Assembly: GCA_030426585.1 (NCBI GenBank)
Contig: JAUHYH010000001.1
Span: forward strand, 1-57,954
Length of the DNA stretch: 57,954 bases
From: Bacteriovoracia bacterium
GTDB taxonomy: Bacteria > Bdellovibrionota > Bacteriovoracia > Bacteriovoracales > Bacteriovoracaceae
Direction of reading: 5' to 3'
The translations under genes and the position numbers were made by a program. Under the pieces are notes generated by a model. It had not been told where the DNA came from. It ran no database searches and saw nothing but the letters and a program-made list of their open reading frames with translations. Position 1 is the first letter of the stretch, and each line of letters opens with the position of its first letter. Shown here piece after piece: positions 13,410 through 51,948 of the stretch.

Positions 13410-15921
13410 ATGACAAAAGAGATCACTCATATATCGATTCGAGGCGCTCGAGTTAACAATCTCAAAAACGTTGATGTCGATATTCCACTAAAGCAAATTA
13501 CCTGTTTCATTGGTCCTTCTGGTTCAGGAAAGTCATCACTCGCTTTTCATACATTACTCGCAGAATCGAAACGAAGACTTATGAATTGTTTTCCAAACGA
13601 TCTCCGCTTTTTTAGTGAAAAACCGCCTGCGGTTGAAGTGGATTACCTCGCTCCTGTTCTTCCGGTTTTTGGCCTCCCTCAAATTAATCCGGTTAAGGGT
13701 TCAAGAACGAATGTTCTTGATAGCATCGGCCTTACTCATTTACTTCAGAACTTATGGTATTACATGAGTGAAGAGTATTGTGAACGACACAAAATTCCTC
13801 TAGAGACGCTTAGTTATTCAAAACAATTTACAGAGCAAATTGAACATGATGACGAGGGGATAGTTCACTTTCTTCTTCATAAAGTGACTTACCTAAAAAT
13901 TTTTTCAAATCAAATTCTACCTTCTCGAGTTTATAATGAAGAATCTGGAGAGATGGTTCCTTTTGATAAAGATCAAGAGTATTGGGAAATCAGTCGTTGT
14001 AGAAAAGGAAATTTTTCTAAACTCGATGAAGTTTTGTCGGGGATTGATGGAAGAGTTTCCACTATCTACGTTTATCAAAAAGGTGAGTTGGTTGAATGGA
14101 ACCCAACGCAAACGAAACAATGTCCGACGTGTTTTAGCCCTTCAAAAGTGACGAAGTCAGAAAATCTTTTTTCTCCACATAATGCACTTGGAGCTTGTGA
14201 TAACTGTAATGGGTTTGGGGCTAACTTAGTGGTTGACCCTGAAAAAATCATTGATAAAAATCTTTCAATTAATGATGGTGGGATAAAAATTTTCAAACAT
14301 AAGAAATTTACGAAATATTCTCCAAAGTTTAATGCCGCCTGTAAGGCAAAAAAGATTAGCTTAAACAAGCCTATAGAAAAACTAGATAAAAATTTTGAGA
14401 CGTTGTTTTATGAAGGAAGTGGTCAGTGGGGAGGTTTTAACAAAATTTTGGATTTTCTTGAAAGGAAAAAGTATAAACCAGGAATTAGAATTCTCCTGAG
14501 AAGACTACAAACCGAAAGACTTTGTGAAACCTGTGAGGGAAGTCGACTGACTCCATTAGTGAAAAGGTTTTATCTTGATCCAGAGACACCGAACTTAGCA
14601 GAACTAAGCCAACTCACGGTTGAAGAGCTTAATAATGTTATTAATAAAATTGAACCTCAGAACAAAAGCATAAAATTTGTTTTAGAAAAAATTGAAAGGA
14701 CATTAAAAACTGCGATTGAAATTGGCCTTGGCCATCTTCAACTTAATAGAAAGACAAAAACAATTTCAGCGGGAGAATATAAAACAACAAAAGAATCTTT
14801 TTAAGGGATTAGAGAGGATTAAATCTCAAGGCAATACAATTGTCTTGGTTGACCATTCTCCTGAGCTCGCAAAACTTTCTGATAAAGTCGTTTGGATGGG
14901 ACCATTGGCAGGTTCTGAAGGTGGGCAAATTGTTAAGGAAGGCCCTTATCAGGAAAAGAAGACAACAATAAAATATAAGAAAGAGGCGAAAAAGTTAAAA
15001 CCGAATGTAGAAATCGGAAAGACTTCAATTTATGGTAAAAGTTATGACTCTTTCAGTTTTCCTCTTAAGTCTATGATTTGGGTTCATGGTGAAACAGGTA
15101 GTGGTAAGTCGTCTGTTTTTAATACGGTGTTGAATGAACTCAATTACCAAATGAAGGGAGAATACATCCTTGATAAAGTGGGGGATTTAAAAAGCTTAAA
15201 ATTTCCTCCGAATAAGCTTGAATCGGTTTTGATTGTTGATGCTAACTTGAACAGATATACAAGTCGAAGTACTGTTGGAAGCTTTACTGATCTCGCGAAA
15301 CCTCTTCGCCGGCATTATCTTAACCAACCTACATCGAAAGCTTTAGATTTAAGCGAGGGTCACTTTTCTCCCAACTCTGAACTGGGCCGGTGTTCACGAT
15401 GTGATGGTCGAGGTGAAGAAATTATTGAAATGCAATATCTTGAAGATGTGATTTTACCTTGTGAGGAATGTAAGGGAAAAAAATTAAAAGAAGAGTACGC
15501 TAATATATCTGATGGGATAATGACCGTTTCAGAAGCTTACGAATTACCTATTTCTAAAGTTTTTGAAAGTATTTCTCTAACACCGAAATACCGTAGAATT
15601 CTCTCGTATTTAAAAAAGTTAAAACTAGATTATCTTTCTTTAAGTCGGAATATGACCAATCTTTCAGGGGGAGAAAAGCAAAGGATTTATTTGCTTTCTA
15701 AGCTACTAATTGATTCGAAAGACCAACTTATTTTGATTGAAAACTTATCATTTGGGTTATCTGAAAGAGAGCTTTTTGCGATTCTCGAGTTTTTGAATGA
15801 GCTTGTTTCAGTTGGAAAGACGATTATCCTCATCGATCACAACCCAAAGTTTAAAGCATTTTGTGATTGGGAAGTGGAATTTAAGTCGAAAGGTAAGATA
15901 AATTCTAGTTTTATTAGCTGA
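13410..15921 (+). pseudogene. UvrA-like ABC ATPase paralogue, disrupted. Two overlapping ORFs (13410..14804 and 14716..15921) lie in different frames, and an internal segment is missing.
   Basis: The N-terminus is UvrA-like ([31 protein letters not shown]). Zn modules are present (CPTC..CDNCNGFG, CETCEGSRL, CSRCDGRG..CEECKGKK). There is a second Walker A (GETGSGKSS) and a second signature (LSGGEKQRIYL). The frame switches by +1 within about 14776-14790. The stretch between signature I (ISAGE) and ..SQGNTIVLVDH lacks the Walker B/D-loop segment of about 27 aa. Walker B II reads LILIEN instead of hhhhDE. Confidence 0.65.
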
Positions 15922-25974: not shown

Positions 25975-26424
25975 ATGAGAATCATTACAGCAGTTATCGC
26001 TCTCACTTTATTTGTATCAACACCAGCTTTCTCCGAAGGAAAAAAGAGAAAGATGAGAGGTGGGAAGTATGGACCAGCAGGTTGTGGTCTTGGAGCTACA
26101 CTTCTAAAAGGTAAAAAAGGACTCATGTTCAACGTTTTAGCGGCGACTTTAAACGGAACAGGTTTTCAAACTTTTGCAATGTCTACAGGAACTCTTGGAT
26201 GTAAGGGAGATTCACGTGTAGCAGCTGTTAACTTTATCGAAACAAACAAGGTTTTCCTTGCGAATGATATCGCTAAAGGTGAAGGTGAAACTGTTAATGC
26301 ATTTCTTGATCTAATCAATGAAGATGCAGACTCAATTGCAACTTTACGAACAAACTATGATGAAATTTTCGCTAAAGATTCTAGCTCTGAAGAAATTTGG
26401 AACAGAATCGATACTCTTCTCTAA
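25975..26424 (+). CDS. Exported DUF3015-like protein
   Basis: Signal peptide MRIITAVIALTLFVSTPAFS. GPAGCGLGATLL...GTLGC resembles the DUF3015 family as I remember it. Confidence 0.5.
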   Translation: MRIITAVIALTLFVSTPAFSEGKKRKMRGGKYGPAGCGLGATLLKGKKGLMFNVLAATLNGTGFQTFAMSTGTLGCKGDSRVAAVNFIETNKVFLANDIAKGEGETVNAFLDLINEDADSIATLRTNYDEIFAKDSSSEEIWNRIDTLL

Positions 26425-28183
26425 GAAAATTTTTATAAATTTTCTATTACTAATAGGGGGGCTAGGATTAGCCCCTCTTTTATTTGCACAAACAGAATTT
26501 TCTAAGTCTCGTGAATGGCTCCTTCTTAATAAATACCAACAGATTCTTTATAATACATATGAGAGCCAAATAGATGATCCTAATTTCTTTCTAAGTCCAA
26601 ATGGTAAAAAAAATCCAAGAGAAGAGTGGATAGCAACTTTTGAGCTGTTTAAAAAAGGTGAAGGCTACTGTCGTTTTCCCGCAAGGTTAATGCTTTTTCA
26701 AAAATTTGGTTATAAGTTCAAAACGAACTTCTCCCACTGTGAGAAGTATCGATATTTTCTTAAGCAAACGAATGTTAAAAAAGTTTGGATAGTTTTCGCT
26801 TCTTATTACGTAAACAATCCAGCATCAGCCTTTGGTCATACTTTTCTTCGTTTTCAGGCAAATGAGAAAAAGCCTTCAGATCTTTTAGATTTCACCTTGG
26901 ATTATTCAGCCGATGTTTCACCAAATGAAAATCCGATTGCGTATGGGGTTAAAGGTATTGTGGGTTCTTATTCAGCAACATATAAATTATTTCCTTATTA
27001 TTGGAAAGTTCGAGAGTATCGAGATGGGGAATCAAGAGATTTATGGGAATACGAATTAAAGCTAGACCCTAAACAGATAAAACTTTTGATGGCGCATTTA
27101 TGGGAGTTAAAAGCAGCCAAGAGTGACTACTTTTATTTTACAGAAAATTGTAGCTATCACATTCTCGGACTTATTCAAGCAGTCACACCCGATAAAAAAA
27201 TCTTAAAACCTTTACATAAAATCGTTGTTCCTATTGATACCTTGTTTGCACTAAAGGATGCCAAACTGTTAGGAGAAACAAGATTTAGACCATCAATATT
27301 TTCTAGGCTTGAGAAGCACTGGACCTCTTTAGATAAAAATCAAAAAGCGCAATTTGAAGGCTTAATGGAAGATTCGACGAAAATTTTTGAAGTGAAAGAT
27401 CAACAACTGTTTGATGCTTATATAGAGTACTATGATCGAAAGTATTACGATAAGCTTCTTGATGATAAGTCTCCTGAAAAAATTTTTAAAAATAAATTTT
27501 TAAGTAAAAGAACCAAACTTCCTGTAAATAAAACAAAGTTCAATTATGATCGAATTGCACCAACTAAAGGGCACCGATCAAGACGTTTTACGATTGGTTG
27601 GGATTCTGATGATAAATTTATGCTTCAGCATAAAGCAGCACTACATCAACTGATTGATCCAAGCTCGGGCTATGGAAAAAGTTTTCATATGGACATGGGA
27701 GAGATTCAACTAAAAATCAAAGATGATCCACAGATTCAACAAATGTCTTTGCTCAAAATAAAAGCCTATAAGCCGCTCACTCCTATTAATAAATCTTTAA
27801 GTTGGGATCTAGATATGCTGATGAGACGTGACCCACTCCAGGACTCGCTTCGAGGTATTATTAACTTTTCTGCTGGTGGAGCGTTTGATATTGCGAACTT
27901 TCTTGTGTATTTGGGGCTGACTGGAGAGTTTGAGAGTAGGAGAGGCTTATTCAGAAGAGGTGATACAGGAGTTGGCCCAAAGCTAAATTTAAAGTTCGAG
28001 TATGATAAGTTTATTTTTGTCGGAAAGTATCAAAACCTCAGCTTTTATGAACGAAAAGATGAAATTGAGCGAACCCAACTAGAATTTGGTTATCAAGTCG
28101 GAAAAAATTGGCTGACGCGACTGCGCTACGAGTTTTTTAACTCAGTGGAAGTTTCTGAATTTACTTTGTCTTACTATTTTTAA
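26357..28183 (+). CDS. DUF4105 / Lnb N-terminal periplasmic domain-like protein with a beta-barrel-like C-terminus
   Basis: NNPASAFGHTFLRF is the motif I associate with DUF4105. The C-terminus has alternating beta-strand-like segments ending ..FTLSYYF. The start is uncertain: there is no ATG after the upstream stop, so a start at 26357 overlaps the previous gene by 68 nt. Confidence 0.55.
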   Translation: MMKFSLKILALKKFGTESILFSKKIFINFLLLIGGLGLAPLLFAQTEFSKSREWLLLNKYQQILYNTYESQIDDPNFFLSPNGKKNPREEWIATFELFKKGEGYCRFPARLMLFQKFGYKFKTNFSHCEKYRYFLKQTNVKKVWIVFASYYVNNPASAFGHTFLRFQANEKKPSDLLDFTLDYSADVSPNENPIAYGVKGIVGSYSATYKLFPYYWKVREYRDGESRDLWEYELKLDPKQIKLLMAHLWELKAAKSDYFYFTENCSYHILGLIQAVTPDKKILKPLHKIVVPIDTLFALKDAKLLGETRFRPSIFSRLEKHWTSLDKNQKAQFEGLMEDSTKIFEVKDQQLFDAYIEYYDRKYYDKLLDDKSPEKIFKNKFLSKRTKLPVNKTKFNYDRIAPTKGHRSRRFTIGWDSDDKFMLQHKAALHQLIDPSSGYGKSFHMDMGEIQLKIKDDPQIQQMSLLKIKAYKPLTPINKSLSWDLDMLMRRDPLQDSLRGIINFSAGGAFDIANFLVYLGLTGEFESRRGLFRRGDTGVGPKLNLKFEYDKFIFVGKYQNLSFYERKDEIERTQLEFGYQVGKNWLTRLRYEFFNSVEVSEFTLSYYF

Positions 28184-38694: not shown

Positions 38695-38834
38695 CTCCCC
38701 AACTGCCAATTTTTGTTGGCGTTTTGATGATTTGCGAAATTCTAGAGCACCCTTCTCAGTGCAATTCCGAGGAAAAAACTTACAAATGATAAAATAACGT
38801 AAGGGTTTAATTTAATTATAACGACAAGGTATTG

Positions 38835-41800
38835 ATGGTAATTAAAAGGTTTCTAACAGTATCTTTACTTGCGGTGTTAATCGCATGTAACGGCGGGAGT
38901 AATTCCGATTCAGATAATTTTCTGGGAATCGGTGATGACTCCAATGGGAGTGGACCAGGTAACTCAGCCCTCTCTTTTAGTCCATCACTTTTAGACTTTG
39001 GTGACATCGCCCTTTCAAGTTCAACAACAAGCTCTGTGACAGTAACGAATGTCAGTGACCAAGCTGTTTATCTCACAAATATTCAAGGTGAGAATTCTTT
39101 CTTTTCAAGAGTCGGAGGAACCTGTTTTTCTGGTTCAGGCTTACTAGCAGTTGATGCAACCTGTACTGTGACCATTCAATTTACTGCTTTAACGGGTGGT
39201 GATCACGAAGGAATATTTAGTTTTAATTATGGAACGGAACCAGGAGACACTGACTTAACTGCGAATTTGAGTCTTGAGGGGAGTGCAGGAGTTAATCCTC
39301 CAACCAATTACTCGTTGACCAATGTCGCCGGAACAACTGTTACCATCGGTTGGAATGATAACTCAACAAATGAAACAAGTTTTGAAGTGAATCGATGTAC
39401 AGGTACAGTTTGTGCAGCGACATTCACTGCAGACTTTACTGACTTCACAGCGGCTAACGCAACTTCTTATGCGTTCACTGGTTTAACCGAAGGTGAGTAT
39501 TACCGTTTTAGAGTAAGGGCGGTCACGGGAACAAATCAAAGTACATGGTTAGAAGGTTCAGTGATGGTCACATTTGGCGGGATTGCCTCGGTCGATGATA
39601 ACGGAACGGGTATGGCTGATCTTACAAGCCTTGATTGTCGAACGGAAGCCGAAGGAGCTTATGTTTCCTTAAGTTGGAATTCAGTGCCAGATGCAACAAA
39701 TTATTTTATCTATGATGTTACGGGTTCAGGGAATACTTTACTAAAAACGGTTTCAGCACCGGCGACTTCAGCAATTGTTACGGGTTTAACAATCAATACA
39801 GCCTATAACTTATTAGTAACAACAGGAACAAGCACGGGGTTTATTTCAGAAAATGCGACAACGACAGCTTTAACGACCACGGATTATCTTCCTTGTATTG
39901 TTCTTGGAAAAGCAGAGATGACAGGTGGGGCAAATGCAGCGGGATTGCAAAATCCAACAGCCGTTAAAATTTATGGCGGAAAGATGTATCTAGCCGATCG
40001 TAACAACCATAGAGTCCTTATTTGGAATACTCCACCAACTGGCCCAACTGATCTTCCGGATATTGTTTTAGGTCAGGATAATATGTTCTCAAACTACATA
40101 AATAATACACCTGGAAATATAGGAACGGTAAGTGGCCAGTCGATGAACTATCCTTTTGGACTTTGGGTGGGGAGTATTGGTGGAGCTGACCGTCTTCTTG
40201 TCGCAGATTCAAGTAATAATAGAATTCTTGTGTGGACCTCGCTGCCAACAACAAATCATCAAGCAGCTGACCTGGTTCTTGGGCAAGCGAATTTAACAAT
40301 TAACACAGCAGATGGTGGGGATGTTTCTAGAGGTTTACAAAACCCCTATGATGTCTACTCTGATGGAACAAAAATCTATGCGACGGATACCGGTAATCAC
40401 AGAACTCTAATTTGGAATAGTTTTCCTGCTACTAACTTTGCGACTCCGGACGTTTACCTTGGGCAACCTGATAGTACTACAACAAGCAGTGGGTGTGGTG
40501 CTGATGAAATGAATAGTCCTCAAGGCGTTTGGTCAGATGGCTCCCGAATGATGGTCGCTATCTCAAGTTGTCATCGAGTCGCTATTTATGAGTCCATTCC
40601 TGGAACTGGGACTAATCCGAATCCTGATACGATCTTGGGGCAAACGAGTTTAACAGGTAATAGTTCAAGTTCTGCTGCAGATAAAATGAATTCACCTAAA
40701 AAAGTAAGAGTTTTTGGTTCTCAAATTTTTGTTGCTGACTATGGTAGAAATCGAGTTAAGGTTTGGAACTCAATCCCTGCGCCAGGAAATCATGGAGTTG
40801 CTTCCGATTTTGTTATTGGTTTATCTAACACGGGTAATAGTTCTGGAAGCCAACAGAATAGACTTCAAAATCCAACTGATATTGAGATTTCAGGAACGAC
40901 TGTTTACGTGTCTGATTATAACAATTATAGAATTATGGGTTTTAATTCAATTCCAACTGGAGATGGGACGAACGCAGACTTTCTGTTTGGACAAGGTGGA
41001 TTCGATAAAGAAGTTCTTAACTATTACGAAGATACAAATGAAAGATCTTATGATCAACCCCAGGGAATGGCCTATGATGGGACACAGTTTTTTGTTGCTG
41101 ATCCCGACAGGCATAGGGTTCTCGTTTATAATGGAATCCCAAGTTCTTGGAATCAAGATGCTGATTATGTTCTTGGACAAGGTAATTTTAGTCTTCAATC
41201 ATCGGGAAGAAATCAAGCCGCTTTAAGCGCTCCAAGAGGGGTCTGTGTTGGTGGCGGTCAATTGTGGGTGCCAGATTATAATAACAATAGAGTTATGGTT
41301 TTTGATTTACCTATTACTACAAATTCTCCCAATGCAGCAGCAGTCTTAGGACAAACAAGCTGGACGACGAATACGACAGGTACTGGCCTAGATCAACCAA
41401 GAAACCCTATTGCTTGTCATTATGATGGTTCAAAGTTTTTTGTAGTTGATCGAGGTTACGATAGAGTTCTTGTTTGGAATTCTCTTCCGAGCATGGCAAC
41501 AGTGGCAGACAATCCTGCTGCTGATTTTATGTTAGGAACAACAACGGGGAATCAGACGAGTCAAAATCAGCTTTACGATCCTTGGGGAATTTATTCTGAT
41601 GGAACGAAACTTTATGTCGCTGATGCTGGAAATCACCGGGTCATGGTTTGGAATAGTTTGACGGGCGTTGATGATCAAAATGCGGATTTTTATCTTGGTG
41701 GAAATACTAACTGGACCTCAAGGAATGGACTCGTTTCAGCAACTGGTCTTAATTACCCTATCGATATAGTGGGAGATGGAGGGTCAGGGATTTATGTACT

Positions 41801-42023
41801 TGATGCGTCTAATGGTCGAGTGATGAAATTTGATAATCCCGTCGCAACAAATGATTTTGCTTCGACTGTTTATGGTAAGTCGAGCTTTACTGATACAACC
41901 GAACCGGGTAATGAGAGTATGTCACTTTCAACAAGTGCTCGGTCATTATTAAGAATAAATAATAGATTATTCGTTTCTGACCAAGGTCACTCGAGAGTAA
42001 TAGCAACGCCTATTGCGCCTTAA
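38835..42023 (+). CDS. Large surface lipoprotein: beta-sandwich (HYDIN/choice-of-anchor-D-like) + 2 fibronectin type III + 12 NHL repeats (two six-bladed propellers)
   Basis: Lipobox LIAC. LDFGDIAL..VTVTNVSDQAVYL...C..ATCTVTIQF is the beta-sandwich. GWNDNSTNETSFEV..YRFRVRAV is FN3. There are twelve copies of the h-[YF]-V-x-D-x-x-N-x-R-[VI]-h-h-[WF]-N pattern (e.g. MYLADRNNHRVLIWN, LYVADAGNHRVMVWN). Confidence 0.8.
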   Translation: MVIKRFLTVSLLAVLIACNGGSNSDSDNFLGIGDDSNGSGPGNSALSFSPSLLDFGDIALSSSTTSSVTVTNVSDQAVYLTNIQGENSFFSRVGGTCFSGSGLLAVDATCTVTIQFTALTGGDHEGIFSFNYGTEPGDTDLTANLSLEGSAGVNPPTNYSLTNVAGTTVTIGWNDNSTNETSFEVNRCTGTVCAATFTADFTDFTAANATSYAFTGLTEGEYYRFRVRAVTGTNQSTWLEGSVMVTFGGIASVDDNGTGMADLTSLDCRTEAEGAYVSLSWNSVPDATNYFIYDVTGSGNTLLKTVSAPATSAIVTGLTINTAYNLLVTTGTSTGFISENATTTALTTTDYLPCIVLGKAEMTGGANAAGLQNPTAVKIYGGKMYLADRNNHRVLIWNTPPTGPTDLPDIVLGQDNMFSNYINNTPGNIGTVSGQSMNYPFGLWVGSIGGADRLLVADSSNNRILVWTSLPTTNHQAADLVLGQANLTINTADGGDVSRGLQNPYDVYSDGTKIYATDTGNHRTLIWNSFPATNFATPDVYLGQPDSTTTSSGCGADEMNSPQGVWSDGSRMMVAISSCHRVAIYESIPGTGTNPNPDTILGQTSLTGNSSSSAADKMNSPKKVRVFGSQIFVADYGRNRVKVWNSIPAPGNHGVASDFVIGLSNTGNSSGSQQNRLQNPTDIEISGTTVYVSDYNNYRIMGFNSIPTGDGTNADFLFGQGGFDKEVLNYYEDTNERSYDQPQGMAYDGTQFFVADPDRHRVLVYNGIPSSWNQDADYVLGQGNFSLQSSGRNQAALSAPRGVCVGGGQLWVPDYNNNRVMVFDLPITTNSPNAAAVLGQTSWTTNTTGTGLDQPRNPIACHYDGSKFFVVDRGYDRVLVWNSLPSMATVADNPAADFMLGTTTGNQTSQNQLYDPWGIYSDGTKLYVADAGNHRVMVWNSLTGVDDQNADFYLGGNTNWTSRNGLVSATGLNYPIDIVGDGGSGIYVLDASNGRVMKFDNPVATNDFASTVYGKSSFTDTTEPGNESMSLSTSARSLLRINNRLFVSDQGHSRVIATPIAP

Positions 42024-42613
42024 AGTTTTATATCAATTCCAAAAAGTAGGCTTAGACTTGTGAGGGTAGAGTTATTCTGCATGGTCTCATAATTGATCCC
42101 AGCAAATGCGGTCGAAAAATTAAAGGGGTATTTATAATAAGTACCAAGACCAAATCCCGTGAATGGGACTGTGCTTGAAGAGGTATTTATGTAGTACTGT
42201 GAGCCAATTGCCTGTAAGCACCATGACGGGGTTTCAGCATCAACACTATTAAGAATTGTTTTCGAATTAAGATTAATTTTTGAAGTCTTTTTAAGAAGTG
42301 AGCCTGTTAAAGCGTAAATATATCTAAAGTTAAAAGCCGAGCCTGAACTTTCAGATCCCAGATTCATTTGTCGGAAGCTCACTCCTAGTGCTGATTTTTG
42401 ATTAATCGCATATTGGGCTAAAAGTTCTAAACCAGGACCAGATAAACTTTGACCAGTACCTGAGTTGGAAAGTTGGGTATAGGCCAAGCTTGGCTGAAGC
42501 GAAAGTTTAGAAACTTGAGTAGCTGTATTAACGATCTCTTCAGAGAACGCTGACATAGTAAAACTTACACTTAAAAGGCATAAAAGAGTCTTAAGCATAG
42601 ATATATTATACAC
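42020..42613 (-). CDS. Small outer-membrane beta-barrel protein (OmpA-like/porin-family barrel, ~8 strands)
   Basis: Signal peptide LLCLLSVSFTMSAFS and alternating amphipathic strands. The C-terminal strand ends LLFGIDIKL, so it lacks a terminal aromatic residue. Confidence 0.5.
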   Translation of the reverse strand: MYNISMLKTLLCLLSVSFTMSAFSEEIVNTATQVSKLSLQPSLAYTQLSNSGTGQSLSGPGLELLAQYAINQKSALGVSFRQMNLGSESSGSAFNFRYIYALTGSLLKKTSKINLNSKTILNSVDAETPSWCLQAIGSQYYINTSSSTVPFTGFGLGTYYKYPFNFSTAFAGINYETMQNNSTLTSLSLLFGIDIKL

Positions 42614-42700
42614 AGACTCTAACTAAAGAGAATTTTTCCTTATGTTTTTCTACGCTTTACTGAGAGATAATAATTATTGAGGTGGGATAAATCGATAAAT

Positions 42701-44968
42701 ATGGTCAAGAAAAAAGAAAAAGATATTAGGAAGCTCGAAGTAAAAGAACATGTTCTTAAGCATAAGGAAATCTATGCGAAGAAACTAAAAGAACTTGTTG
42801 AAGAAAATGAGAGAGAGCAGAAAGAATATCAATCGAAGCTTTCAAAGTTAGAATCTGACCTTGTTGATAAAAAACATATAATTCAGTGTTTAACCCAAGA
42901 TCTTAAAAAAGTAGAAATTCAAAAAGAAAGCAAACTTGCTTCTGTATCTGACTTAAAAAGAAAAAAAGCCACACTTTTAGATGAAGTAAACCAATTTGAA
43001 AAAGAGATAGCAGAAACAACGAAGTCAATTAAGTTGGCAGATGAAGAAGAAGTGAAACTTCAGGGCGAAATCAGTACTCTAAAACAACAGAAAGAAGAAA
43101 AAGAAATTCTTGTTGAAGAATTGGCTAATAAAAAGAATCAGGTTCTAAGTGTTGTTGATAAGCAAAAAGAAGTATTAGCGCTGGCCAATCATGACTTTAC
43201 AACAATAGCCCAAAGGAAGTCTGTTTTAGCAGAAGAATTAGTTGATCTAAAAAATAAAGAAGCAAGTTTTTTGGAAGAAATAAAAAAACTTGAAAAAGAA
43301 ATTACTGAAACCTCTCAATCAATAGAGTTAGCGACTGAAGAAGAAGTTAAGTTAAAAGATCGAATCTCTGAGTTACAAAATATAAATGAGAAGAAGTTGG
43401 CAGCAATTTCAGAGTTAACAAAAAAGAAAGATCAAGTTTTAAACCTTGTTAATAAATATAAAGAAAGTTTGGAGAGTTTAAACAAGGGGTTTGAATCTTC
43501 AGCCGAGAAAGAAGCCGTTTTAAATGAAGAGATATCTTCGCTGAATAAAGAAAAATTAGAACTAGAAGCAAAGATTAAAGAGTATGATGTTCTCGCTCCA
43601 CTTTCGAAGAAGGGGCTCTTGGAAGAGGTTGAGAGTTTAAAGACACTTGAAAGTTCCGTGGAAGCTCTTAGGACTGAATTAAAAGAAAAAGAATCTGGCA
43701 TTATAAACTTAGTAGAAGAAAATAACCGTATTTCAAATGAAACGTTGAAGGTTACCAGTCAACTCAGAGAGTTCACTCTTGAAAAAATAAACCTTGATAA
43801 ACAAGAAGCAAATATTAGAAGCCAGATGACAAACTCCCTGGAGAGTCACAAAAGCTTAGTTACTCAAAGGGATAAAATCAAGAAAGCGTCCAAAGAAGCA
43901 GGAGACCGAATATCGCGCTCATTAGAACTTGTTTCAAGAGCAGATGAAAAGCTAAAATCAGATAGAGAGAATTTATCGGTCTTGATGAGTGAATATAAAA
44001 ATTTAAAAGATCACGAAATAAGTCTTAGATCTGAAATCGCAACAAAAAAATCAGAAATTCTAAAAAATACCAAGGACATTGAAAGTTACAAAGAAGATAT
44101 TTCCTCTATGACAGTTTCACTTTCAGGCTCAAAGAAGACTTTAATAGAGGTTTCTGAAGAGCTCTCAAAATTATTAAAAGAGGTGAAATTTCTTTCACAA
44201 GAGAAGTCAGACCTTCAAAAAAATTGTAGTAGTACAAAAGAAAAACTTATAAAAGAAACTGAAGAACTTAAAATAACGTCAGAAGAAAGAACTTCATTGG
44301 AAAAAGAGATTTCTTTACTGAATTCTCAATTGAAGTCGAATAAAAAAGGAATCTCATTAACTGAGAAGAACCTTGAAAAAGAAACAAAGCTAGTCGACTC
44401 ATTAAAGTCTGACTTAAAAGCCTTGAAGTCTGAAAACAAAATCCTAGAGTCCAGACTTGATTCTCTTCAGGATCAATATCATAAAGTGAACGAAGAGCGA
44501 AAAGATCTCGATCTTCAAAGAAAAGAACAACAAACTCTGAAAAGAACTCTTGAAAGAAATCAGAATAAACTTAAAGCAGATATAGAGTTGTTTTTAACTA
44601 AGATGAAGGACCTCTCGAGAGATGATGCACAGGTTTCATTCAAAGAACTCAAAAGCTATGTTCATGGAGTTGTTGACCTTAATGAACGTGCTGTTGATTT
44701 AATAGGAAAAAGTCCTAAAGCAAATGAATTATTAAAAACTCTTTTCAGAGTAATAATCTCTGAAAAAATTTATTGTAAGTCGCTCACACTCCAGGCCGTG
44801 AGTAACCAAGTATGTAAATTGGTTATTAAAGATCCTTTTGATTCCGTTGAGTCTTGTAGTGATGTCCTTAGCCAATATGGAGTTTCAAACCTAGCAATCA
44901 GAGGCAATGACCTTGAAATTCTTATTAATATCAATGGGTTAGAAAAGCAGCAAAACTTTCCTCTCTGA
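42701..44968 (+). CDS. Long coiled-coil protein (~755 aa) with a non-coiled C-terminal ~130-aa domain
   Basis: Almost continuous heptad-like E/K/L-rich sequence. No TM or signal peptide. The ATG at 42701 is preferred to the TTG at 42677. Confidence 0.6.
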   Translation: MVKKKEKDIRKLEVKEHVLKHKEIYAKKLKELVEENEREQKEYQSKLSKLESDLVDKKHIIQCLTQDLKKVEIQKESKLASVSDLKRKKATLLDEVNQFEKEIAETTKSIKLADEEEVKLQGEISTLKQQKEEKEILVEELANKKNQVLSVVDKQKEVLALANHDFTTIAQRKSVLAEELVDLKNKEASFLEEIKKLEKEITETSQSIELATEEEVKLKDRISELQNINEKKLAAISELTKKKDQVLNLVNKYKESLESLNKGFESSAEKEAVLNEEISSLNKEKLELEAKIKEYDVLAPLSKKGLLEEVESLKTLESSVEALRTELKEKESGIINLVEENNRISNETLKVTSQLREFTLEKINLDKQEANIRSQMTNSLESHKSLVTQRDKIKKASKEAGDRISRSLELVSRADEKLKSDRENLSVLMSEYKNLKDHEISLRSEIATKKSEILKNTKDIESYKEDISSMTVSLSGSKKTLIEVSEELSKLLKEVKFLSQEKSDLQKNCSSTKEKLIKETEELKITSEERTSLEKEISLLNSQLKSNKKGISLTEKNLEKETKLVDSLKSDLKALKSENKILESRLDSLQDQYHKVNEERKDLDLQRKEQQTLKRTLERNQNKLKADIELFLTKMKDLSRDDAQVSFKELKSYVHGVVDLNERAVDLIGKSPKANELLKTLFRVIISEKIYCKSLTLQAVSNQVCKLVIKDPFDSVESCSDVLSQYGVSNLAIRGNDLEILININGLEKQQNFPL
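42974..43567 (+). repeat. Diverged tandem duplication (2 x 297 nt = 2 x 99 aa) inside the coiled-coil gene
   Basis: LLDEVNQFEKEIAETTKSIKLADEEEVKLQGEISTL..ANKKNQVLSVVDKQKE.. aligns colinearly with LEEIKKLEKEITETSQSIELATEEEVKLKDRISEL..TKKKDQVLNLVNKYKE.. Confidence 0.6.
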
Positions 44969-45012
44969 GGTTTGCCCTCATTTCCAGCATTCAGGTTTCG
45001 ATAAGTTCTGTG

Positions 45013-45576
45013 ATGAAAAATCTATATTTATTTTTTTGCTTTTATTTGGTTGCTTGCGCTCAAGTCCAGACTGAAAAACCTTACATCATTGTAAAGCATG
45101 ATGCTGAGATTGAAGTCGATGGAGTTATTAAAAAGGTTAAGGCTAACGAAAAAATTGAAGTTGAAGACGAAAAGACTATAAAAGTTTCGGCGGATGGTAA
45201 GGCTTCACTCGTAATTTTTAATACTAAGGGTTTAAAAAATAATGAAGTAAATCTACCAGACCTTTCTGAGACAAGCATGAATGAAAAGCTTATCCAAAGT
45301 TTGAATAAAAGATTAGACCAGTTGATGCCTCAGATTCAAGAGGTTCAACAAATGATTCTCAATGAAGATTATAATAATGCTATTTCTAAAGTTAGAGATC
45401 TAAAGAATATTTATCCAGGTTTAGCATACCTTTCGTTTTTAGAGAGTGCTTGTTATAAAGTTCAAGGAAGGGATTCTGAAGCCCTGAGAGTTCTTAATGA
45501 GGGACTTTCTATTAATCCAGAAAGCACTGAAGGAAAATCACTATATAGATCTCTTAGTGGTAGGGAGGTTCGATGA
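45013..45576 (+). CDS. Lipoprotein with a C-terminal TPR/SEL1-like repeat, first gene of the stator operon
   Basis: Lipobox YLVAC. C-terminal NEDYNNAISKVRDLKNIYPGLAYLSFLESACYKVQGRDSEALRVLNEGLSINPES. Its stop overlaps the motA-like start (ATGA). Confidence 0.55.
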   Translation: MKNLYLFFCFYLVACAQVQTEKPYIIVKHDAEIEVDGVIKKVKANEKIEVEDEKTIKVSADGKASLVIFNTKGLKNNEVNLPDLSETSMNEKLIQSLNKRLDQLMPQIQEVQQMILNEDYNNAISKVRDLKNIYPGLAYLSFLESACYKVQGRDSEALRVLNEGLSINPESTEGKSLYRSLSGREVR

Positions 45577-46295
45577 AATCACTACCAATAGGAATTCTAG
45601 GCGTCATTATTGTTATTGCTTTGAGTATGGATACCGCGAACTCAGCAATTTATATGAGTGCTCACAGCTTTTATATTGTTTTCTTAGGAACAGCAGCAAT
45701 CTTTCTTTTTGCCAATCCTTTTAAGAATATTATTACCACCTTTGTTGCTGTAAAAAGTTTATTTGAAAAAGATAAAACTCCAGAAGAGGTGAGAAGTCTT
45801 GTTGAAGAGATTGCTAAAAATAAAGGCTTAGAAAAAGATCACAAAATACCACTGGTAGACTATGCCCTTAAGCTTTGGAAACAAGGTGTTGAGCCTGACA
45901 TTGTTGAAAGTTTGCTTATTGAAAAAAATGAAGACGTTGTTTCTACGACTGAAATTCCTGTAAGTGTACTTAAAAACCTTTCTAAATACCCTCCAGCATT
46001 GGGTATGACAGGAACGGTTATGGGTATGATTAGTTTATTTGCAAACCTTAATAGTGATAATAAAGCCGCTATTGGAGAGGCTCTTTCTGTTGCCATGACT
46101 GCAACCTTTTATGGTTTGATGTACGCGAACTTCATTTTGTTACCACTTGCAGACAGACTCCATATTCGTCATAAGGCCATTACAAATAGAAACGATCTTG
46201 TTTTAAACGCTCTTTTAAAAATTAATAGATCTGAGCCTTTGAGCTTTATAGAGAACCTTAACCTCGAGCAATCTTATTACGAGCAGGCAGGTTAA
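45573..46295 (+). CDS. motA: MotA/PomA-family proton (or sodium) channel stator subunit
   Basis: 240 aa with a 2 TM + ~100-aa cytoplasmic loop + 2 TM topology. PPALGMTGTVMGMI and TATFYGLMYANFILLPLADRL match the MotA/ExbB/TolQ channel helices. Confidence 0.75.
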   Translation: MKSLPIGILGVIIVIALSMDTANSAIYMSAHSFYIVFLGTAAIFLFANPFKNIITTFVAVKSLFEKDKTPEEVRSLVEEIAKNKGLEKDHKIPLVDYALKLWKQGVEPDIVESLLIEKNEDVVSTTEIPVSVLKNLSKYPPALGMTGTVMGMISLFANLNSDNKAAIGEALSVAMTATFYGLMYANFILLPLADRLHIRHKAITNRNDLVLNALLKINRSEPLSFIENLNLEQSYYEQAG

Positions 46296-46296
46296 G

Positions 46297-46908
46297 ATGG
46301 CTAGAAAAACGTATTATTACCATGATTCAGAAGGTTGGGCGGTCTCTTATTCAGACCTTTTAATGGTTTTAATGTCGTTCTTTATTATTTATTTCAATAT
46401 CGATGGTGGGGATAATACCCCTCTTCAAAAACTAGCTTTTGAGTTGATGGAAGATAAAAGCCTAAAAGATCAGAGTTTTATTGTGAATCCTTCGAGAGAG
46501 GTTGCTGGCAATAGTTTGACCGAAGGTCTTAATATTGGTTTTAATAATAAGCCTACTGAAAAACCAATCTATAAAGAGTTTATAATTGATCTTCCTCCAA
46601 ATATATATTCGGTTGGTAATTATGAATTATCCAATCAAGCGAAAGAAAAACTAAACAAAGTCTTTAACTTGATTGAAAAATATAAAGCTGATCTTGATAT
46701 TTATTTTATCGGTCATACCGATTCTCAAAAGTTTAAAAAAAATAAAGAAATTATCAATAGTAATCTCATTCTTTCTAGTATGAGATCAGCGAGGGCGGTA
46801 GAGTACGCGATCAAAAATGGGTTTGATGAAAATCAAGTTTATGTCCAGGGATTAAAAGGACGCCCAAGAGATACGAGATCCTTAAGTCTAAGGTTGGTGG
46901 CACGATGA
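46297..46908 (+). CDS. motB: MotB/PomB-family stator subunit with an OmpA-like peptidoglycan-binding C-terminus
   Basis: GWAVSYSDLLMVLMSFFIIYF contains the invariant channel Asp. The C-terminal IGHTDS...N..LS..RA..V pattern is OmpA-like. Confidence 0.75.
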   Translation: MARKTYYYHDSEGWAVSYSDLLMVLMSFFIIYFNIDGGDNTPLQKLAFELMEDKSLKDQSFIVNPSREVAGNSLTEGLNIGFNNKPTEKPIYKEFIIDLPPNIYSVGNYELSNQAKEKLNKVFNLIEKYKADLDIYFIGHTDSQKFKKNKEIINSNLILSSMRSARAVEYAIKNGFDENQVYVQGLKGRPRDTRSLSLRLVAR

Positions 46909-48338
46909 TGAAAATGATAATCTTATTTGCTTTTGCATTATCAATAAAAGGGTTTAGCTTTGATCAACTTTCAGAAAAGGAAGCACTTAGAGGTGAAATC
47001 ACTGATAGAATTACCAATGTCATAAAAGTTTTTGATTCTGAAGCAAGAGTCGATGTCAGTATTCAGTTATCAAAAAGGAATAAAAAAATTAAAGTTAATA
47101 ATCCTTTTCTGTTATCGCTTGATCAAGAAAATGGGGCCAGTGAATATTATATTTTAAAACTCTCTGCAACAATATTTACTCGGTTTTCAACTTCAGAGAT
47201 ACCAACTGAGGTGACAGAGAGAATTAATGCTATTAGTTCTGAATATTCTAGAAACAAAGAAGTATTTTATTCTGAGCTTCAAGGTTCTACTGTAAGTCCT
47301 TCTTTCATGAGTCAAACTTCACCTTTTGAGTTCTTTGTCGCTTTTATATTATTATTTGCCTGCTCATTTGGAGTGTTTGTTTTTTATCAATCCAAGAAGC
47401 AAGCTTCAAGTAATATTGGGAGCATTGTTGAAGAAGGAATTAAGAAAATTTCAAACTCGCTTGATTCATTGGGAACCATCGCTGGTGGAAATGTCGAAAC
47501 GACGCCATTTAATATTGAGGTTAACTCGGGTAAAGAGTCCTTTCTTTTAGATGTTTCACTAGACTCCTTAGAAGAGGTCCTAATGGACTGTTATTGGTGT
47601 GAAGAGGATCGGTATGGTGCCTATCTGTGGGAAAGACTGGATGTTCTTAGAAAGGGGCAATTAATAGAGAAAAATAAGAGAATGGCAGATTATGGTGCTT
47701 TTCTTCAATCTGTTGAACCTGAGAATAAAAAGTTTGTGACAGATTCTTATTACCTTTCTCCTTTATCTCTAGAATCGATTGATAATGAATCACTTACGAA
47801 GTTAGTTGAAAAGTACAACTCTGTCTTTCATCTTCTTCCTAAAATCAGAATTGACCACCTTGACCTATCAGCAATTAAAAAGAAAGAACTTTATTTAAAG
47901 AAATACTCTAAGGAAGATACTCAATTCGAAATTCAAAATATTAATTGGGATGAGTACAAAACTACAATTTCACGTCCATTAGATAATGTACATGTGTTTA
48001 GTTTTAAAGATTTTGATGAAGAAGAAGAGTTTTTTAAAGAAAATAGTCATGATGTGTCCCTTATTCATGCATTTCCCTCGCTTTCTTGGTTAACTGTTTT
48101 AAGAGAAGAAGATATTACTGAAATTTTATCAAAATTTACAGCTAAACAACTGGCGATTGCTTGGCACGCTCCAAGTTCTACTTTGGAAAAATTGGAAGAA
48201 TGTCTTCCAGAAGAAAAACTCCATCTCTTAAAGACTTATCAGGAAAGTTTAACTTCCAATAGAAACAATTCTGTTTATCAACAGATTATTGCCGAAGCTA
48301 TTGTAAGACTTGAGAAAAGACTAACATTGGCTGCATAG
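46905..48338 (+). CDS. Bitopic membrane protein of unknown function: periplasmic FliF/YscJ ring-motif-like segment, one TM, and a cytoplasmic domain with a FliG-C-like end
   Basis: N-terminal hydrophobic leader, then ALRGEITDRITNVIKVFDSEARVDVSIQL (compare FliF ALEGELARTIETL..V..ARVHL). TM FFVAFILLFACSFGVFVFY. C-terminal VLREEDITEILSKFTAKQLAIAWHAPSSTLEKLEECLPEEKLHLLKTY...IIAEAIVRLEKR (compare the FliG_C pattern L..VD...L..LL.......LA.ALKGAS.EL.EK...NMS.R....L.EE.E......I...IR.LE). Overlaps motB by 4 nt. Confidence 0.45.
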   Translation: MMKMIILFAFALSIKGFSFDQLSEKEALRGEITDRITNVIKVFDSEARVDVSIQLSKRNKKIKVNNPFLLSLDQENGASEYYILKLSATIFTRFSTSEIPTEVTERINAISSEYSRNKEVFYSELQGSTVSPSFMSQTSPFEFFVAFILLFACSFGVFVFYQSKKQASSNIGSIVEEGIKKISNSLDSLGTIAGGNVETTPFNIEVNSGKESFLLDVSLDSLEEVLMDCYWCEEDRYGAYLWERLDVLRKGQLIEKNKRMADYGAFLQSVEPENKKFVTDSYYLSPLSLESIDNESLTKLVEKYNSVFHLLPKIRIDHLDLSAIKKKELYLKKYSKEDTQFEIQNINWDEYKTTISRPLDNVHVFSFKDFDEEEEFFKENSHDVSLIHAFPSLSWLTVLREEDITEILSKFTAKQLAIAWHAPSSTLEKLEECLPEEKLHLLKTYQESLTSNRNNSVYQQIIAEAIVRLEKRLTLAA

Positions 48339-48365
48339 TAAATATCAAATTAAATTATAAAGATA

Positions 48366-48396
48366 AAAAAACCCGGAACTAAGTCCCGGGTTTTTC
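48366..48396. terminator. Bidirectional terminator after the stator operon
   Basis: AAAAAAACCCGG-(AACTAAGTC)-CCGGGTTTTT hairpin with flanking A and T runs, lying between convergent genes. Confidence 0.7.
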
Positions 48397-48398
48397 TT

Positions 48399-49952: not shown

Positions 49953-49975
49953 CAACCTCAAATGAGTTGAGGTTG
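49953..49975 (+). promoter_or_regulatory. Perfect 9-bp hairpin / inverted repeat in the flagellin-1 leader
   Basis: CAACCTCAA-ATGAG-TTGAGGTTG, ending 8 nt upstream of the AGGAGG Shine-Dalgarno (49984-49989). Confidence 0.45.
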
Positions 49976-49996
49976 AAATCATCAGGAGGATGCGCA

Positions 49997-50845
49997 ATGG
50001 GATTACGTATCAACACCAACGTAGCGTCTGTGAACGCACAACGGAACCTCCGAACGACACAGAGAGGTCTCCATAAGACTCTCGAGCAATTGTCTTCGGG
50101 TTTTCGTATCAATCGTGCTGGTGACGATGCCGCTGGTTTGGCCATTTCCGAGAATTTGAGAGCTCAAATTCGAGGTCTAGGGCAAGCCGAAAGAAACGCA
50201 AGTGACGGTATCTCACTAGTGCAGATCGCAGAAGGTGCTCTTGCCGAATCATCTAACATTCTAATCAGACTTAGAGAGTTAGCAGTGCAAGCAGCGTCAG
50301 ACACGATCGGACCAACAGAGAGAAAGTTTCTCAACGTTGAATTCGAGCAGTTGATTTCCGAAATGGATCGGATCGCCAACTCAACAGAATTTAACAACGT
50401 TAAACTTCTCAACGGAACAGGAGCTGTACTCGATATCCAAATCGGAACGAGAAACGATCCTATCGCCGACAGATTAACATTTGATGCTTCGGCAGCGGAT
50501 GTTAACGTCGCGGCTTTAGGACTGAATCTCGCTTCAGTGGCGGATAAAATTTCAGCTCAGAACTCGCTCGCAGCGATTGACCAAGCAATCATTACAGTTT
50601 CTGGGGTAAGGGCCGATTTTGGTGCTCTTCAGAACCGATTGCAATCAACGATCAATAACATTTTGATCAGTATTGAGAACATGTCGGCTGCAAACTCTCG
50701 GGTTCGAGATGCAGACATCGCGAAAGCGACGGCTGAATTGACGAAAAACAACGTTCTAATGCAAGCAGGTACTTCGGTACTAGCGCAAGCGAACCGAGTG
50801 ACCTCGTCTGCGATTGGACTAATCCAATCCGCTTCGAATATCTAA
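49997..50845 (+). CDS. fliC: Flagellin (short, ~282 aa, D0/D1 only), GC-rich paralogue
   Basis: MGLRINTNVASVNAQRNL, AGDDAAGLAISE, LGALQNRL and LAQAN are present. The start is at 49997 behind AGGAGG; the longer ORF-track start at 49967 is rejected. Confidence 0.92.
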   Translation: MGLRINTNVASVNAQRNLRTTQRGLHKTLEQLSSGFRINRAGDDAAGLAISENLRAQIRGLGQAERNASDGISLVQIAEGALAESSNILIRLRELAVQAASDTIGPTERKFLNVEFEQLISEMDRIANSTEFNNVKLLNGTGAVLDIQIGTRNDPIADRLTFDASAADVNVAALGLNLASVADKISAQNSLAAIDQAIITVSGVRADFGALQNRLQSTINNILISIENMSAANSRVRDADIAKATAELTKNNVLMQAGTSVLAQANRVTSSAIGLIQSASNI

Positions 50846-51114: not shown

Positions 51115-51948
51115 ATGGGACTAAGAATTAACACCAATGTGCCTTCAATTACGGCACAGCGGAACTTAAAGATGACAAAACGGAGTCTTGATAGCAATTA
51201 CAGCAGACTTGCATCAGGCTCTAGGATTTCAAAAGCAGCAGATGATGCTGCAGGGTTAGCAATTAGTGAGAAACTCAAAGCCCAAATTCGAAGTTTACGA
51301 CAAGCCAGAAGAAACACTGAAGACGGTATTTCGATGGTTCAAGTCGCCGAAGGTGGGATGAATGAAGTTTCAGGGATGTTAATTAGGATGAGAGAGTTGG
51401 CGATTCAAGCAGCTTCAGACACAATTGGACCAGACGAAAGACGGTTCACTGACCTAGAATTTCAAGCTTTGAAAGCTGAAATTGAAAGGGTTGCACAGTC
51501 TGGAGAATACAATGGGAACAAGCTCCTTAATGGAGCAGGTGGACTCATTGAAGTGCAAATTGGAACGCGTAATAATCCATTCGAAGATAGAATTAGTTAC
51601 GACGCTTCACTTACCGACGTTACTTTAGGAGCACTCGGTATTACAGGTGACGAAGTGACTAGTAAAGAAGGAGCTCAAAGCGCACTAACCAGTCTTGATA
51701 ATGCGATATTATCAGTCAACGGTTCACGTGCAGAACTTGGAGCGCTTCAGAATCGAATGGTAACGATTACAAACACTCTCGACATTAACGACGAGAACTT
51801 CAGTGCTGCAAACTCACGGATTCGAGATGTTGATATTGCTTCCGAATCAGCTGACCTTACTAAAAACAATATCCTAGTACAGTCCGGAGTATCTGTACTA
51901 GCCCAAGCCAACAATACTTCGAACCTTGCACTGAAACTACTAGGCTAA
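51115..51948 (+). CDS. fliC: Flagellin (short, 277 aa)
   Basis: MGLRINTNVPSITAQRNL, AADDAAGLAISE, LGALQNRM and LAQANNTSNLALKLLG are present. Confidence 0.93.
   Translation: MGLRINTNVPSITAQRNLKMTKRSLDSNYSRLASGSRISKAADDAAGLAISEKLKAQIRSLRQARRNTEDGISMVQVAEGGMNEVSGMLIRMRELAIQAASDTIGPDERRFTDLEFQALKAEIERVAQSGEYNGNKLLNGAGGLIEVQIGTRNNPFEDRISYDASLTDVTLGALGITGDEVTSKEGAQSALTSLDNAILSVNGSRAELGALQNRMVTITNTLDINDENFSAANSRIRDVDIASESADLTKNNILVQSGVSVLAQANNTSNLALKLLG

Follow-up and report, generated by a model that had tools for sequence, protein, structure and literature searches.

A membrane-anchored protein with a FliG_C-like domain encoded beside a flagellar-type MotAB stator in Bdellovibrionota

The stretch of DNA analysed here, referred to as the window, comprises 57,954 nucleotides (nt) of a Bacteriovoracia bacterium (positions 1 to 57,954 of contig JAUHYH010000001.1, assembly GCA_030426585.1). 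According to its list of open reading frames (ORFs), it encodes at 46905..48338 on the + strand a 477-residue protein, hereafter called X, whose ATG start codon (46905-46907) overlaps the TGA stop codon of a motB-like gene (46906-46908) by 4 nt in the form ATGA. The last ~110 residues of X are a divergent FliG C-terminal domain, borne by a bitopic inner-membrane protein that matches no library model and has 375 homologous clusters. An original prediction, made from the sequence of the window, had described X as a periplasmic part resembling the ring-building motif (RBM) of FliF, followed by a transmembrane (TM) helix and a FliG_C-like end. The ORF, the leader, the single TM helix, the conserved C-terminus, and the overlap with motB that it had reported were all confirmed from the ORF list, hydropathy, and alignment, and the strings it had quoted, ALRGEITDRITNVIKVFDSEARVDVSIQL, FFVAFILLFACSFGVFVFY, and VLREEDITEILSKF...IVRLEKR, were found at residues 27-55, 143-161, and 398-473, respectively.

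Strong hydrophobic windows occur in X only at the N-terminal leader and at residues 138-163, with a Kyte-Doolittle value of 2.5 for the FFVAFILLFACSFGVFVFY segment. The putative Sec-type leader, MMKMIILFAFALSIKGFS, occupies residues 1-18 (46905..46958, +, directly before 46959), as judged from hydropathy and from the AXA-like leader ends in the family alignment. It is followed by a predicted RBM-like periplasmic domain of alpha-beta-beta-alpha-beta order (residues 19-124; 46959..47276, +) and by the TM helix (residues 143-161; 47331..47387, +), which the model places at residues 140-164. A poorly conserved cytoplasmic linker of low model confidence, with predicted local distance difference test (pLDDT) values of 31-48 and variable in the family alignments (residues 162-211; 47388..47537, +), leads to a middle helical domain (residues 213-345; 47541..47939, +), which carries the most conserved residues of the family alignments and has a pLDDT above 90 in the domain model, and finally to the FliG_C-like domain (residues 364-476; 47994..48332, +). 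The AXA-type leader ends, together with a positive-inside SKK after the TM helix, fit a topology with a cleaved Sec leader, a periplasmic N-domain, one TM helix, and a cytoplasmic C-terminal part. A bidirectional terminator hairpin with a 15-bp stem (48365..48397) closes the operon after X.

The assignment of the FliG_C-like domain is based on structure prediction and on profile comparison. In the full-length AlphaFold model of X (pLDDT 74.5), the cytoplasmic part (residues 213-476) is all-helical after the disordered linker, and a model of residues 205-477 alone reaches a mean pLDDT of 92.1. When the latter was searched against the PDB with Foldseek, the top 15 matches were all FliG, from Thermotoga maritima, Aquifex aeolicus, Salmonella, and Helicobacter pylori. 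They include isolated FliG_C (1qc7; 80 columns, 4.4 A, TM-score 0.53-0.57, 22% identity, probability 0.98-0.99) and FliG_C bound to MotAB (8ucs_H; 79 columns, 4.2 A, TM-score 0.59, 23% identity); taken together, these two entries have probabilities of 0.97-0.99 and Foldseek E-values of only 0.04-0.7. Beyond the FliG entries, the next probabilities lie below 0.05, with MgtE at rank 40 (probability 0.23). The full-length model likewise matches FliG (8umx_B, 4fhr_B, 1lkv, and 1qc7). The fold search for which the original prediction had called thus recovered FliG_C blind from the predicted structure, and we regard the structural evidence as specific but not overwhelming.

At the sequence level, FliG_C, FliG_M, FliG_N, and MgtE_N gave no Pfam match at E<=10 in any of 8 family members, and a family hidden Markov model searched against PDB sequences found T. 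maritima FliG_C at a sub-threshold E-value of 0.73, in the same register, and otherwise noise from the TM region. A single E. coli FliG aligned by hhalign in the expected register with P of about 0.04-0.1; because single E. coli FliG and FliF sequences were too weak on their own (P 0.04-0.1), profiles were built for both. The FliG profile comprises 10 sequences, namely E. coli FliG and nine plasmid- or chromid-encoded FliG from Beta- and Alphaproteobacteria, Bacillota, and Actinomycetota. With this profile, residues 364-458 of X align with FliG 202-302 over 95 columns (score 36.3, P 2.9e-4), compared to 16.3 +/- 1.9 (maximum 22.1) for 60 block-shuffled profiles and 15.8 for the reversed profile. 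Since the score lies far above both kinds of control, about 10 standard deviations in the case of the shuffles, we consider the relationship to FliG_C real, and the guess made from the helix pattern of the translation is borne out by the profile alignment as well as by the fold search. Within the domain, ARM_C-like helices come first; a PSLxWL segment then occupies the position of the MFxF hinge of FliG and is followed by the helices that contact MotA in FliG.

The same register places MSQR-AADILRDDLANRGPVR of FliG on the family motif LPEKK-xxLLxSYxxxxxPSR, which allows the charged residues of the FliG torque helix to be compared with those of X. Position 437 of X, equivalent to FliG R281, is Lys or Arg in 46/52 sequences and Glu in the window's own clade; K438, at the position of FliG A282, is invariant (52/52); and R453, equivalent to FliG R297, is Arg or Lys in 51/52. 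FliG K264 corresponds to Ile or Val at position 421, D288 to Ser or Thr at position 444, and D289 to Y445, which is Tyr in 47/52 sequences. On the side of the stator, the MotA R90 position is Lys or Arg in 8/9 of the MotA proteins linked to X. The conserved charges that the original prediction had proposed to look for are therefore only partly present: the R281 and R297 equivalents are conserved as basic residues, but the D288/D289 pair is replaced by Ser/Thr-Tyr, and only 5/9 of the linked MotA proteins have an acidic residue at the position of E98. The presumed rotor-like surface of X keeps the basic residues without the canonical acidic pair, and any contact between X and MotA must differ in detail from that in E. 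coli.

The periplasmic domain was assigned from its predicted fold. In the full-length model, the program DSSP delimits alpha(19-41)-beta(48-57)-beta(81-92)-alpha(101-112)-beta(118-124), and an unprompted Foldseek search of the PDB returned FliF (9a67_A, E 1.6e-3, probability 1.0; 8zds, 7d84, 8t8p, and 8ftf, probability 0.97-0.99) as well as PrgK (2y9j_Y, 4oyc_B, and 6rwx_a), with overall probabilities of 0.84-1.0 for the FliF and PrgK matches. The top match of the full-length protein is a FliF-YlxF model. Pfam gave no YscJ_FliF (PF01514) match for X or its close members. With a FliF profile of six sequences, for which plasmid and chromid genes were again drawn upon, the best hhalign match was to the start of RBM3 (FliF 231-271), scoring 21.2 versus 15.0 +/- 2.0 for shuffled profiles (maximum 19.8; z about 3). 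The proposal of an RBM is supported by the alpha-beta-beta-alpha-beta fold and its FliF and PrgK matches, but the RBM2-type motif alignment put forward for it scores 15.6 against the shuffled 15.0 +/- 2.0. Because the RBM2 register is within noise and the RBM3 match reaches a z of only about 3, the assignment rests on the predicted fold and is made at the fold level only. Most members of the 52-sequence family alignment (A2) carry an LPGT or LP.TPF motif (consensus K.....LPGT.F) in the beta1-beta2 loop of this domain; the window's own clade does not, having NNPFLLS at this place in a loop of low model confidence.

Conservation within A2 is highest in the middle domain (D228, C229, Y230, W231, D235, W242, Y263, Y283, P286, and R315), and a second conserved block lies in the C-terminal region (E373, L393, W395, L408, A413, L416, A417, W420, L427, K438, and Y445). 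The pattern D-C-Y-W...D.Y(A)...W is the most conserved part of X, and the block at residues 228-242 (window 47586-47630) has no detectable sequence homolog in the PDB or in FliG N/M. It could be a site for oligomerisation, for a partner, or for a ligand. A second alignment of 35 sequences (A5) was used for the model of the cytoplasmic domain. At its extreme C-terminus X ends in ...LTLAA (window 48327-48335), and 146/156 full-length members end in AA, VA, AS, or SA, 102 of them in AA. Such AA-type ends resemble ssrA-type C-terminal degrons as well as the C-terminal turnover signal of Caulobacter FliF, and may mark X for life-cycle-dependent proteolysis.

X and 8 close members match no Pfam, NCBIfam, or PADLOC model. 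A word-indexed protein search found 8 relatives, and repeating it with the 52-sequence alignment as the query brought in a single further protein. An exhaustive profile search yielded 375 clusters (50% identity representatives) at E<=1e-3 and 301 at <=1e-30, almost all of them full-length proteins of 470-560 residues. Labels were inspected for 76 of these clusters: all are proteins from metagenome-assembled genomes (MAGs) or metagenomes, hypothetical or unlabelled, and the taxa, where given, are Halobacteriovoraceae, Bacteriovoracaceae, Pseudobdellovibrionaceae, Bdellovibrionaceae, and Bdellovibrionales. No cultured strain is among them; the genome scan used a narrow peptide pattern, which returned 3 loci, and absence from cultured Bdellovibrio is not proven. 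X is a real conserved gene and a member of an unnamed family that is restricted to Bdellovibrionota among the labelled sources.

Upstream of X lie the genes for a stator. The A subunit (240 residues; 45573..46295, +) is a MotA/PomA-like protein of the flagellar type that matches MotA_ExbB (PF01618) at 4e-19 and the PomA model at 2.1e-28 (99 bits) over practically its full length (residues 6-228), compared to 1e-3 (19 bits) for TolQ and 0.14 (12 bits) for ExbB. The B subunit (203 residues; 46297..46908, +) is MotB-like, with a plug (MotB_plug, 2.2e-7), the invariant ion-binding Asp equivalent to E. coli D32, and an OmpA-type peptidoglycan-binding domain (2.3e-7). Among the nine MotA proteins of the cluster, P173 and P222 are invariant, and D32 and the peptidoglycan-binding motif of MotB are kept. 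The four-TM A subunit and the B subunit with plug, Asp, and OmpA domain have, to judge by their sequences, the hallmarks of a PomAB-like stator, and the criteria of PMC12505986 place MotAB stators of this kind in the flagellar (FIT) class. The pair is assigned to the flagellar (PomAB-like) class; as it retains both essential prolines along with the plug, the ion-binding Asp, and a peptidoglycan-binding domain, the stator encoded next to X looks functional. To our knowledge, FliG_C is the only known client of flagellar-class MotAB, which is thought to act only on the FliG of the flagellar C-ring.

The genomic context was compared across ten loci whose X proteins share as little as about 25% identity and whose neighbourhoods are otherwise unrelated. 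The order motA-motB-X is kept in 9/9 loci with flanking sequence, and six genes recur: those for a giant lipoprotein with NHL repeats, a ~185-residue TPR protein, MotA, MotB, X, and a ~195-residue barrel-like protein. The TPR protein, a secreted protein or lipoprotein with a C-terminal TPR module, is encoded directly upstream of motA in 8 loci; in the window it is a lipoprotein of 188 residues with lipobox LVAC (45010..45576, +). The beta-rich secreted protein, a putative small outer-membrane barrel of 197 residues in the window (42020..42613, -), has homologs directly downstream of X elsewhere, usually overlapping its 3' end (7 loci, with weaker matches to the window ORF and its ortholog in the locus L001), and gives only a faint OMP_b-brl hint in one member. 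The giant lipoprotein (1063 residues, lipobox LIAC; 38832..42023, +) contains HYDIN-type Ig, fn3, and NHL repeats and is co-conserved in 7 loci. In the window and its closest relative L001 only, and thus clade-specific, a further protein of 763 residues with coiled coils (42677..44968, +) is probably co-transcribed; its gene sits between those for the barrel-like protein and the TPR lipoprotein, 42 nt from the next gene, and its matches are weak and SMC/JetC-like. A recurrent 415-residue neighbour seen by eye in L027, L028, and L030 failed the all-versus-all criterion.

Only the window and L001 have flagellin genes beside the module; in 7/9 loci no flagellar gene is nearby, and the other loci adjoin rpsU-dnaG-rpoD, RND efflux genes, a gene for a methyl-accepting chemotaxis protein (MCP), a BCCT transporter gene, or a PilZ/response-regulator pair. 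The module therefore does not belong to a conserved cluster of flagellar genes. The tandem flagellin genes of the window (49967-50845 and 51115-51948), a pair also present in L001, lie 1.6 kb downstream of X and have a G+C content of 44.5% versus ~34% around them. One locus, L030, contains a single putative in-frame MotB::X fusion (P0115, 698 residues; 8001-10097 in GCA_900143125.1, FRDC01000361.1), the only case among the 150 representatives listed. The other two reading frames are closed, and the fusion has two TM helices in a coherent topology and a leader-like segment of reduced length. Its source is one MAG only, and its ORF holds an in-frame GTG upstream of the leader that could also permit separate initiation.

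Several other genes stand near the module in one or two loci. A PilZ protein and a response regulator lie beside it in L030 (10685-13313), and a NIT-MCP and a cNMP-binding Crp-like regulator in L027 (1777-4679); these signalling neighbours hint at second-messenger or chemosensory control, in an arrangement that is not conserved. A protein with an Lnb_N/DUF784x periplasmic domain is encoded directly upstream of motA in L028 (6456-8444), and the window has a relative at a distance of 17 kb (26318-28183); this may be coincidence. Elsewhere in the window, the overlapping ORFs 13410-14804 (UvrA DNA-binding domain) and 14716-15921 (ABC ATPase domain) look like a split or frameshifted uvrA, and a TamB-like gene (1377 residues, 5413-9546) and an Omp85/POTRA gene (934 residues, 9543-12347) overlap by 4 nt as a TAM-like pair for outer-membrane assembly.

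We think it probable that X is the cognate partner of the adjacent MotA, bound through its FliG_C-like domain and acting in a non-flagellar envelope module. The ATGA overlap of motB and X and the invariant adjacency of motA, motB, and X in 9 independent loci, down to ~25% X identity, count in favour of such a partnership. X and MotAB most likely make up a 5:2 ion-driven motor assembled from flagellar components, with X as its dedicated partner. Ion flow would turn the MotA pentamer around MotB anchored to peptidoglycan, and the cytoplasmic domain of MotA would engage the FliG_C-like domain of X, which is tethered to the membrane. Self-assembly of X by means of the RBM-like domain in the periplasm and the conserved middle domain would give a small ring, in which one chain acts as both FliF and FliG. 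The stators would turn this ring within the membrane, and its periplasmic side would transmit the movement to the TPR protein, the NHL giant, and the barrel. Possible outputs are the movement of surface adhesins, gliding, or prey contact. A ring is favoured because both recognisable domains of X derive from ring-forming rotor proteins and because engineered FliF-FliG fusions assemble rings (PMC10941966, PMC11481574, PMC6079021). Even so, we put forward a rotating, non-flagellar ring of X driven by the upstream MotAB as a tentative geometry, to which we give less than an even chance.

A number of observations weigh against this interpretation. The Foldseek E-values are modest, none of them below 1e-3 and 0.037 at best for the model of the cytoplasmic domain, and comparison of residues 205-362 of X with FliG 1-200 (FliG N/M) by hhalign gave no signal (12.7 versus 12.2 +/- 2.1 for shuffles). 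The acidic pair missing from the X family is the partner of MotA R90, and the E98 position of MotA, which is not conserved among the linked proteins, is Ile in the window. In the periplasm, the similarity to RBMs is not significant at the sequence level, and the fold is not unique to them, as OsmC/Ohr proteins are the only other recurrent Foldseek matches. With regard to the output of a rotating ring, fliM and fliN genes are found in none of 9 loci, nor are rod or export genes linked, and the MotB::X fusion, if genuine, would mean that X cannot rotate continuously against MotB.

That fusion is better accommodated by a transducer tethered to the stator according to Ton/Tol logic, in which one or two copies of X stay with each MotA5B2 and neither a ring nor continuous rotation of X is required. 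Rotation of MotA would grip the FliG_C-like domain and drag or wind X, and the pull would pass via the periplasmic domain of X and the TPR protein to two outer-membrane components, the barrel and the NHL giant. Translational coupling implies a near 1:1 ratio of X to MotB, the ~50-residue cytoplasmic linker would serve as a flexible tether, and the co-conserved outer-membrane and lipoprotein partners resemble those of the Ton and Tol systems. However, the fusion is one case in 150 and may have an internal start at its GTG; moreover, X lacks an extended periplasmic region like those of TonB and TolA, its periplasmic domain spanning only ~110 residues, and the stator is PomAB-like rather than ExbBD/TolQR-like, while both domains of X trace back to proteins that form rings. 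We therefore regard a tethered transducer as unlikely, although it remains the strongest competitor of the rotating ring.

Both of these readings place X outside the flagellum, whereas X could instead be an accessory of the flagellar motor itself. Its MotAB would then be one of several stator sets, as in Bdellovibrio, and X a chaperone, decoy, brake, or recruitment scaffold whose FliG_C mimic would retain or pre-activate stators close to the sheathed flagellum, comparable to FlgY/YlxF, MotX/MotY, PflA/PflB, and FlgX. The flagellar type of the stator, the two flagellin genes 1.6 kb downstream in the window and L001, and the FliF-YlxF model at the top of the full-length Foldseek matches agree with this; so do the TPR periplasmic protein, which recalls the stator scaffolds MotX and PflA/PflB, and the reuse of an ARM fold in FlgY (PMC11870540). 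Yet most loci have no flagellar gene in the neighbourhood, neither the NHL giant nor the barrel-like protein is a known component of flagella, and none of the 76 inspected clusters showed the family in a cultured flagellated Bdellovibrio. A role of this kind appears improbable to us.

We hold it to be just as improbable that the FliG_C-like fold is reused without contact to MotA, with X as a scaffold or signalling protein centred on the DCYW middle domain and its linkage to MotAB reflecting shared regulation or assembly only. It is true that conservation peaks in the middle domain rather than in the FliG_C-like part, that the canonical torque charge pairs are incomplete, and that the structural E-values are modest. 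Against this stand the start-stop overlap with motB and a gene adjacency that stays invariant among deeply diverged relatives, the conservation of K438, K437, and R453 on the torque-helix equivalent, which is among the strongest in the C-terminal domain, and a match that is specific to FliG_C instead of to generic ARM or MgtE_N folds. The idea of a plain flagellar operon was down-weighted for want of flagellar genes near the module in 7/9 loci. A Ton/Tol/Agl-type motor was rejected given the scores of the A subunit (TolQ 19 and ExbB 12 versus PomA 99 bits) and the lack of a TonB/TolA-like domain in X, and a Zorya (ZorAB) system given that PADLOC detects ZorA neither in MotA nor in X or the proteins encoded around it, and that the OmpA part of MotB matches ZorB only weakly.

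If X is indeed the cognate partner of MotA, the interface between stator and FliG_C would have been co-opted or retained outside the flagellum; the structural hallmarks of flagellar stators are treated as flagellum-specific in PMC12505986. The result would be a minimal system of ~920 residues in three proteins for the study of torque transfer, with implications for the origin of the coupling between rotor and stator. With considerable doubt, we suggest that the six-gene module may be a hitherto unrecognized rotary or force-transducing envelope machine of Bdellovibrionota, in which one 477-residue chain serves as both FliF and FliG, has its own PomAB-like stator, and powers a surface NHL lipoprotein. 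It is an equally uncertain suggestion that this machine is a reduced relative of the flagellar motor, either its descendant or its sister, a candidate for the gliding or prey-contact motor of these predators, and a natural minimal stator-rotor pair. The motor and adhesins of Bdellovibrionota gliding have yet to be identified, according to a 2026 review (PMC13104615), and the X module is a concrete, if speculative, candidate for this apparatus, from a family not encountered in cultured B. bacteriovorus.

Full-text literature searches gave no account of a FliG_C-like protein that is anchored in the membrane and coupled to MotAB, in agreement with the statement of the original prediction that it knew of none. 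X is not a member of FliG or of FliF/SctJ as these families are defined, but it shares a homologous FliG_C-like domain with the former and an RBM-like fold with the latter. With FliG_C (PF01706) it has in common the C-terminal end at the profile and fold levels, including the ARM_C-like segment, the hinge, and the MotA-contacting bundle, as well as the basic R281 and R297 equivalents and a MotAB neighbour. It differs in being below the Pfam threshold and in being anchored by its own TM helix, whereas FliG binds the tail of FliF via FliG_N; it also lacks the EHPQR/FliM-binding signature and a detectable FliG_N/M, has the D288/D289 pair replaced, and is not linked to FliM or FliN genes. With FliF and SctJ/EscJ/PrgK/YscJ (PF01514), X shares the predicted alpha-beta-beta-alpha-beta fold and the Foldseek matches to FliF RBM2/RBM3 and PrgK, and its topology of N-terminal Sec leader, periplasmic domain, and C-terminal TM helix is that of SctJ. 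However, it has one RBM-like domain compared to three in FliF and two in SctJ, no lipobox Cys as in SctJ, a large cytoplasmic domain that SctJ does not have, and no significant sequence similarity to either.

The neighbouring stator, in turn, shares with PomAB/MotAB an A subunit of PomA length that has four TM helices and P173/P222; its B subunit likewise combines D32 and a plug with OmpA-type peptidoglycan binding. It differs in that its A subunit scores 99 bits versus a PomA equivalog cut-off of 341, in that the E98 position is not conserved, and in being linked always to X and not to flagellar genes. ExbBD-TonB, TolQR-TolA, AglRQS-Glt, and GldLM follow the same logic of an inner-membrane ion motor with a bitopic partner and outer-membrane or lipoprotein parts, but these motors belong to the ExbB/TolQ or GldL class and their partners use TM-TM contacts and long periplasmic domains, none of them a FliG_C-like cytoplasmic domain. 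FliG/MgtE-like ARM folds are also reused in flagellar accessories such as the E-ring protein FlgY (PMC11870540), which calls for caution. In FlgY/YlxF, however, the ARM domain is periplasmic and ~56 residues long, whereas the FliG-like part of X is cytoplasmic and FliG_C-specific. A further parallel is provided by the engineered FliF-FliG fusions of Salmonella and Vibrio, which, like X, combine a periplasmic ring domain, a TM segment, and a stator-facing FliG_C in one chain; the Salmonella fusion reportedly also supports motility. A rotor made of one chain is thus physically plausible. Those constructs are full-length FliF plus FliG (~900 residues) within a complete flagellum, whereas X is natural, highly divergent, only 477 residues long, and linked to non-flagellar envelope genes.

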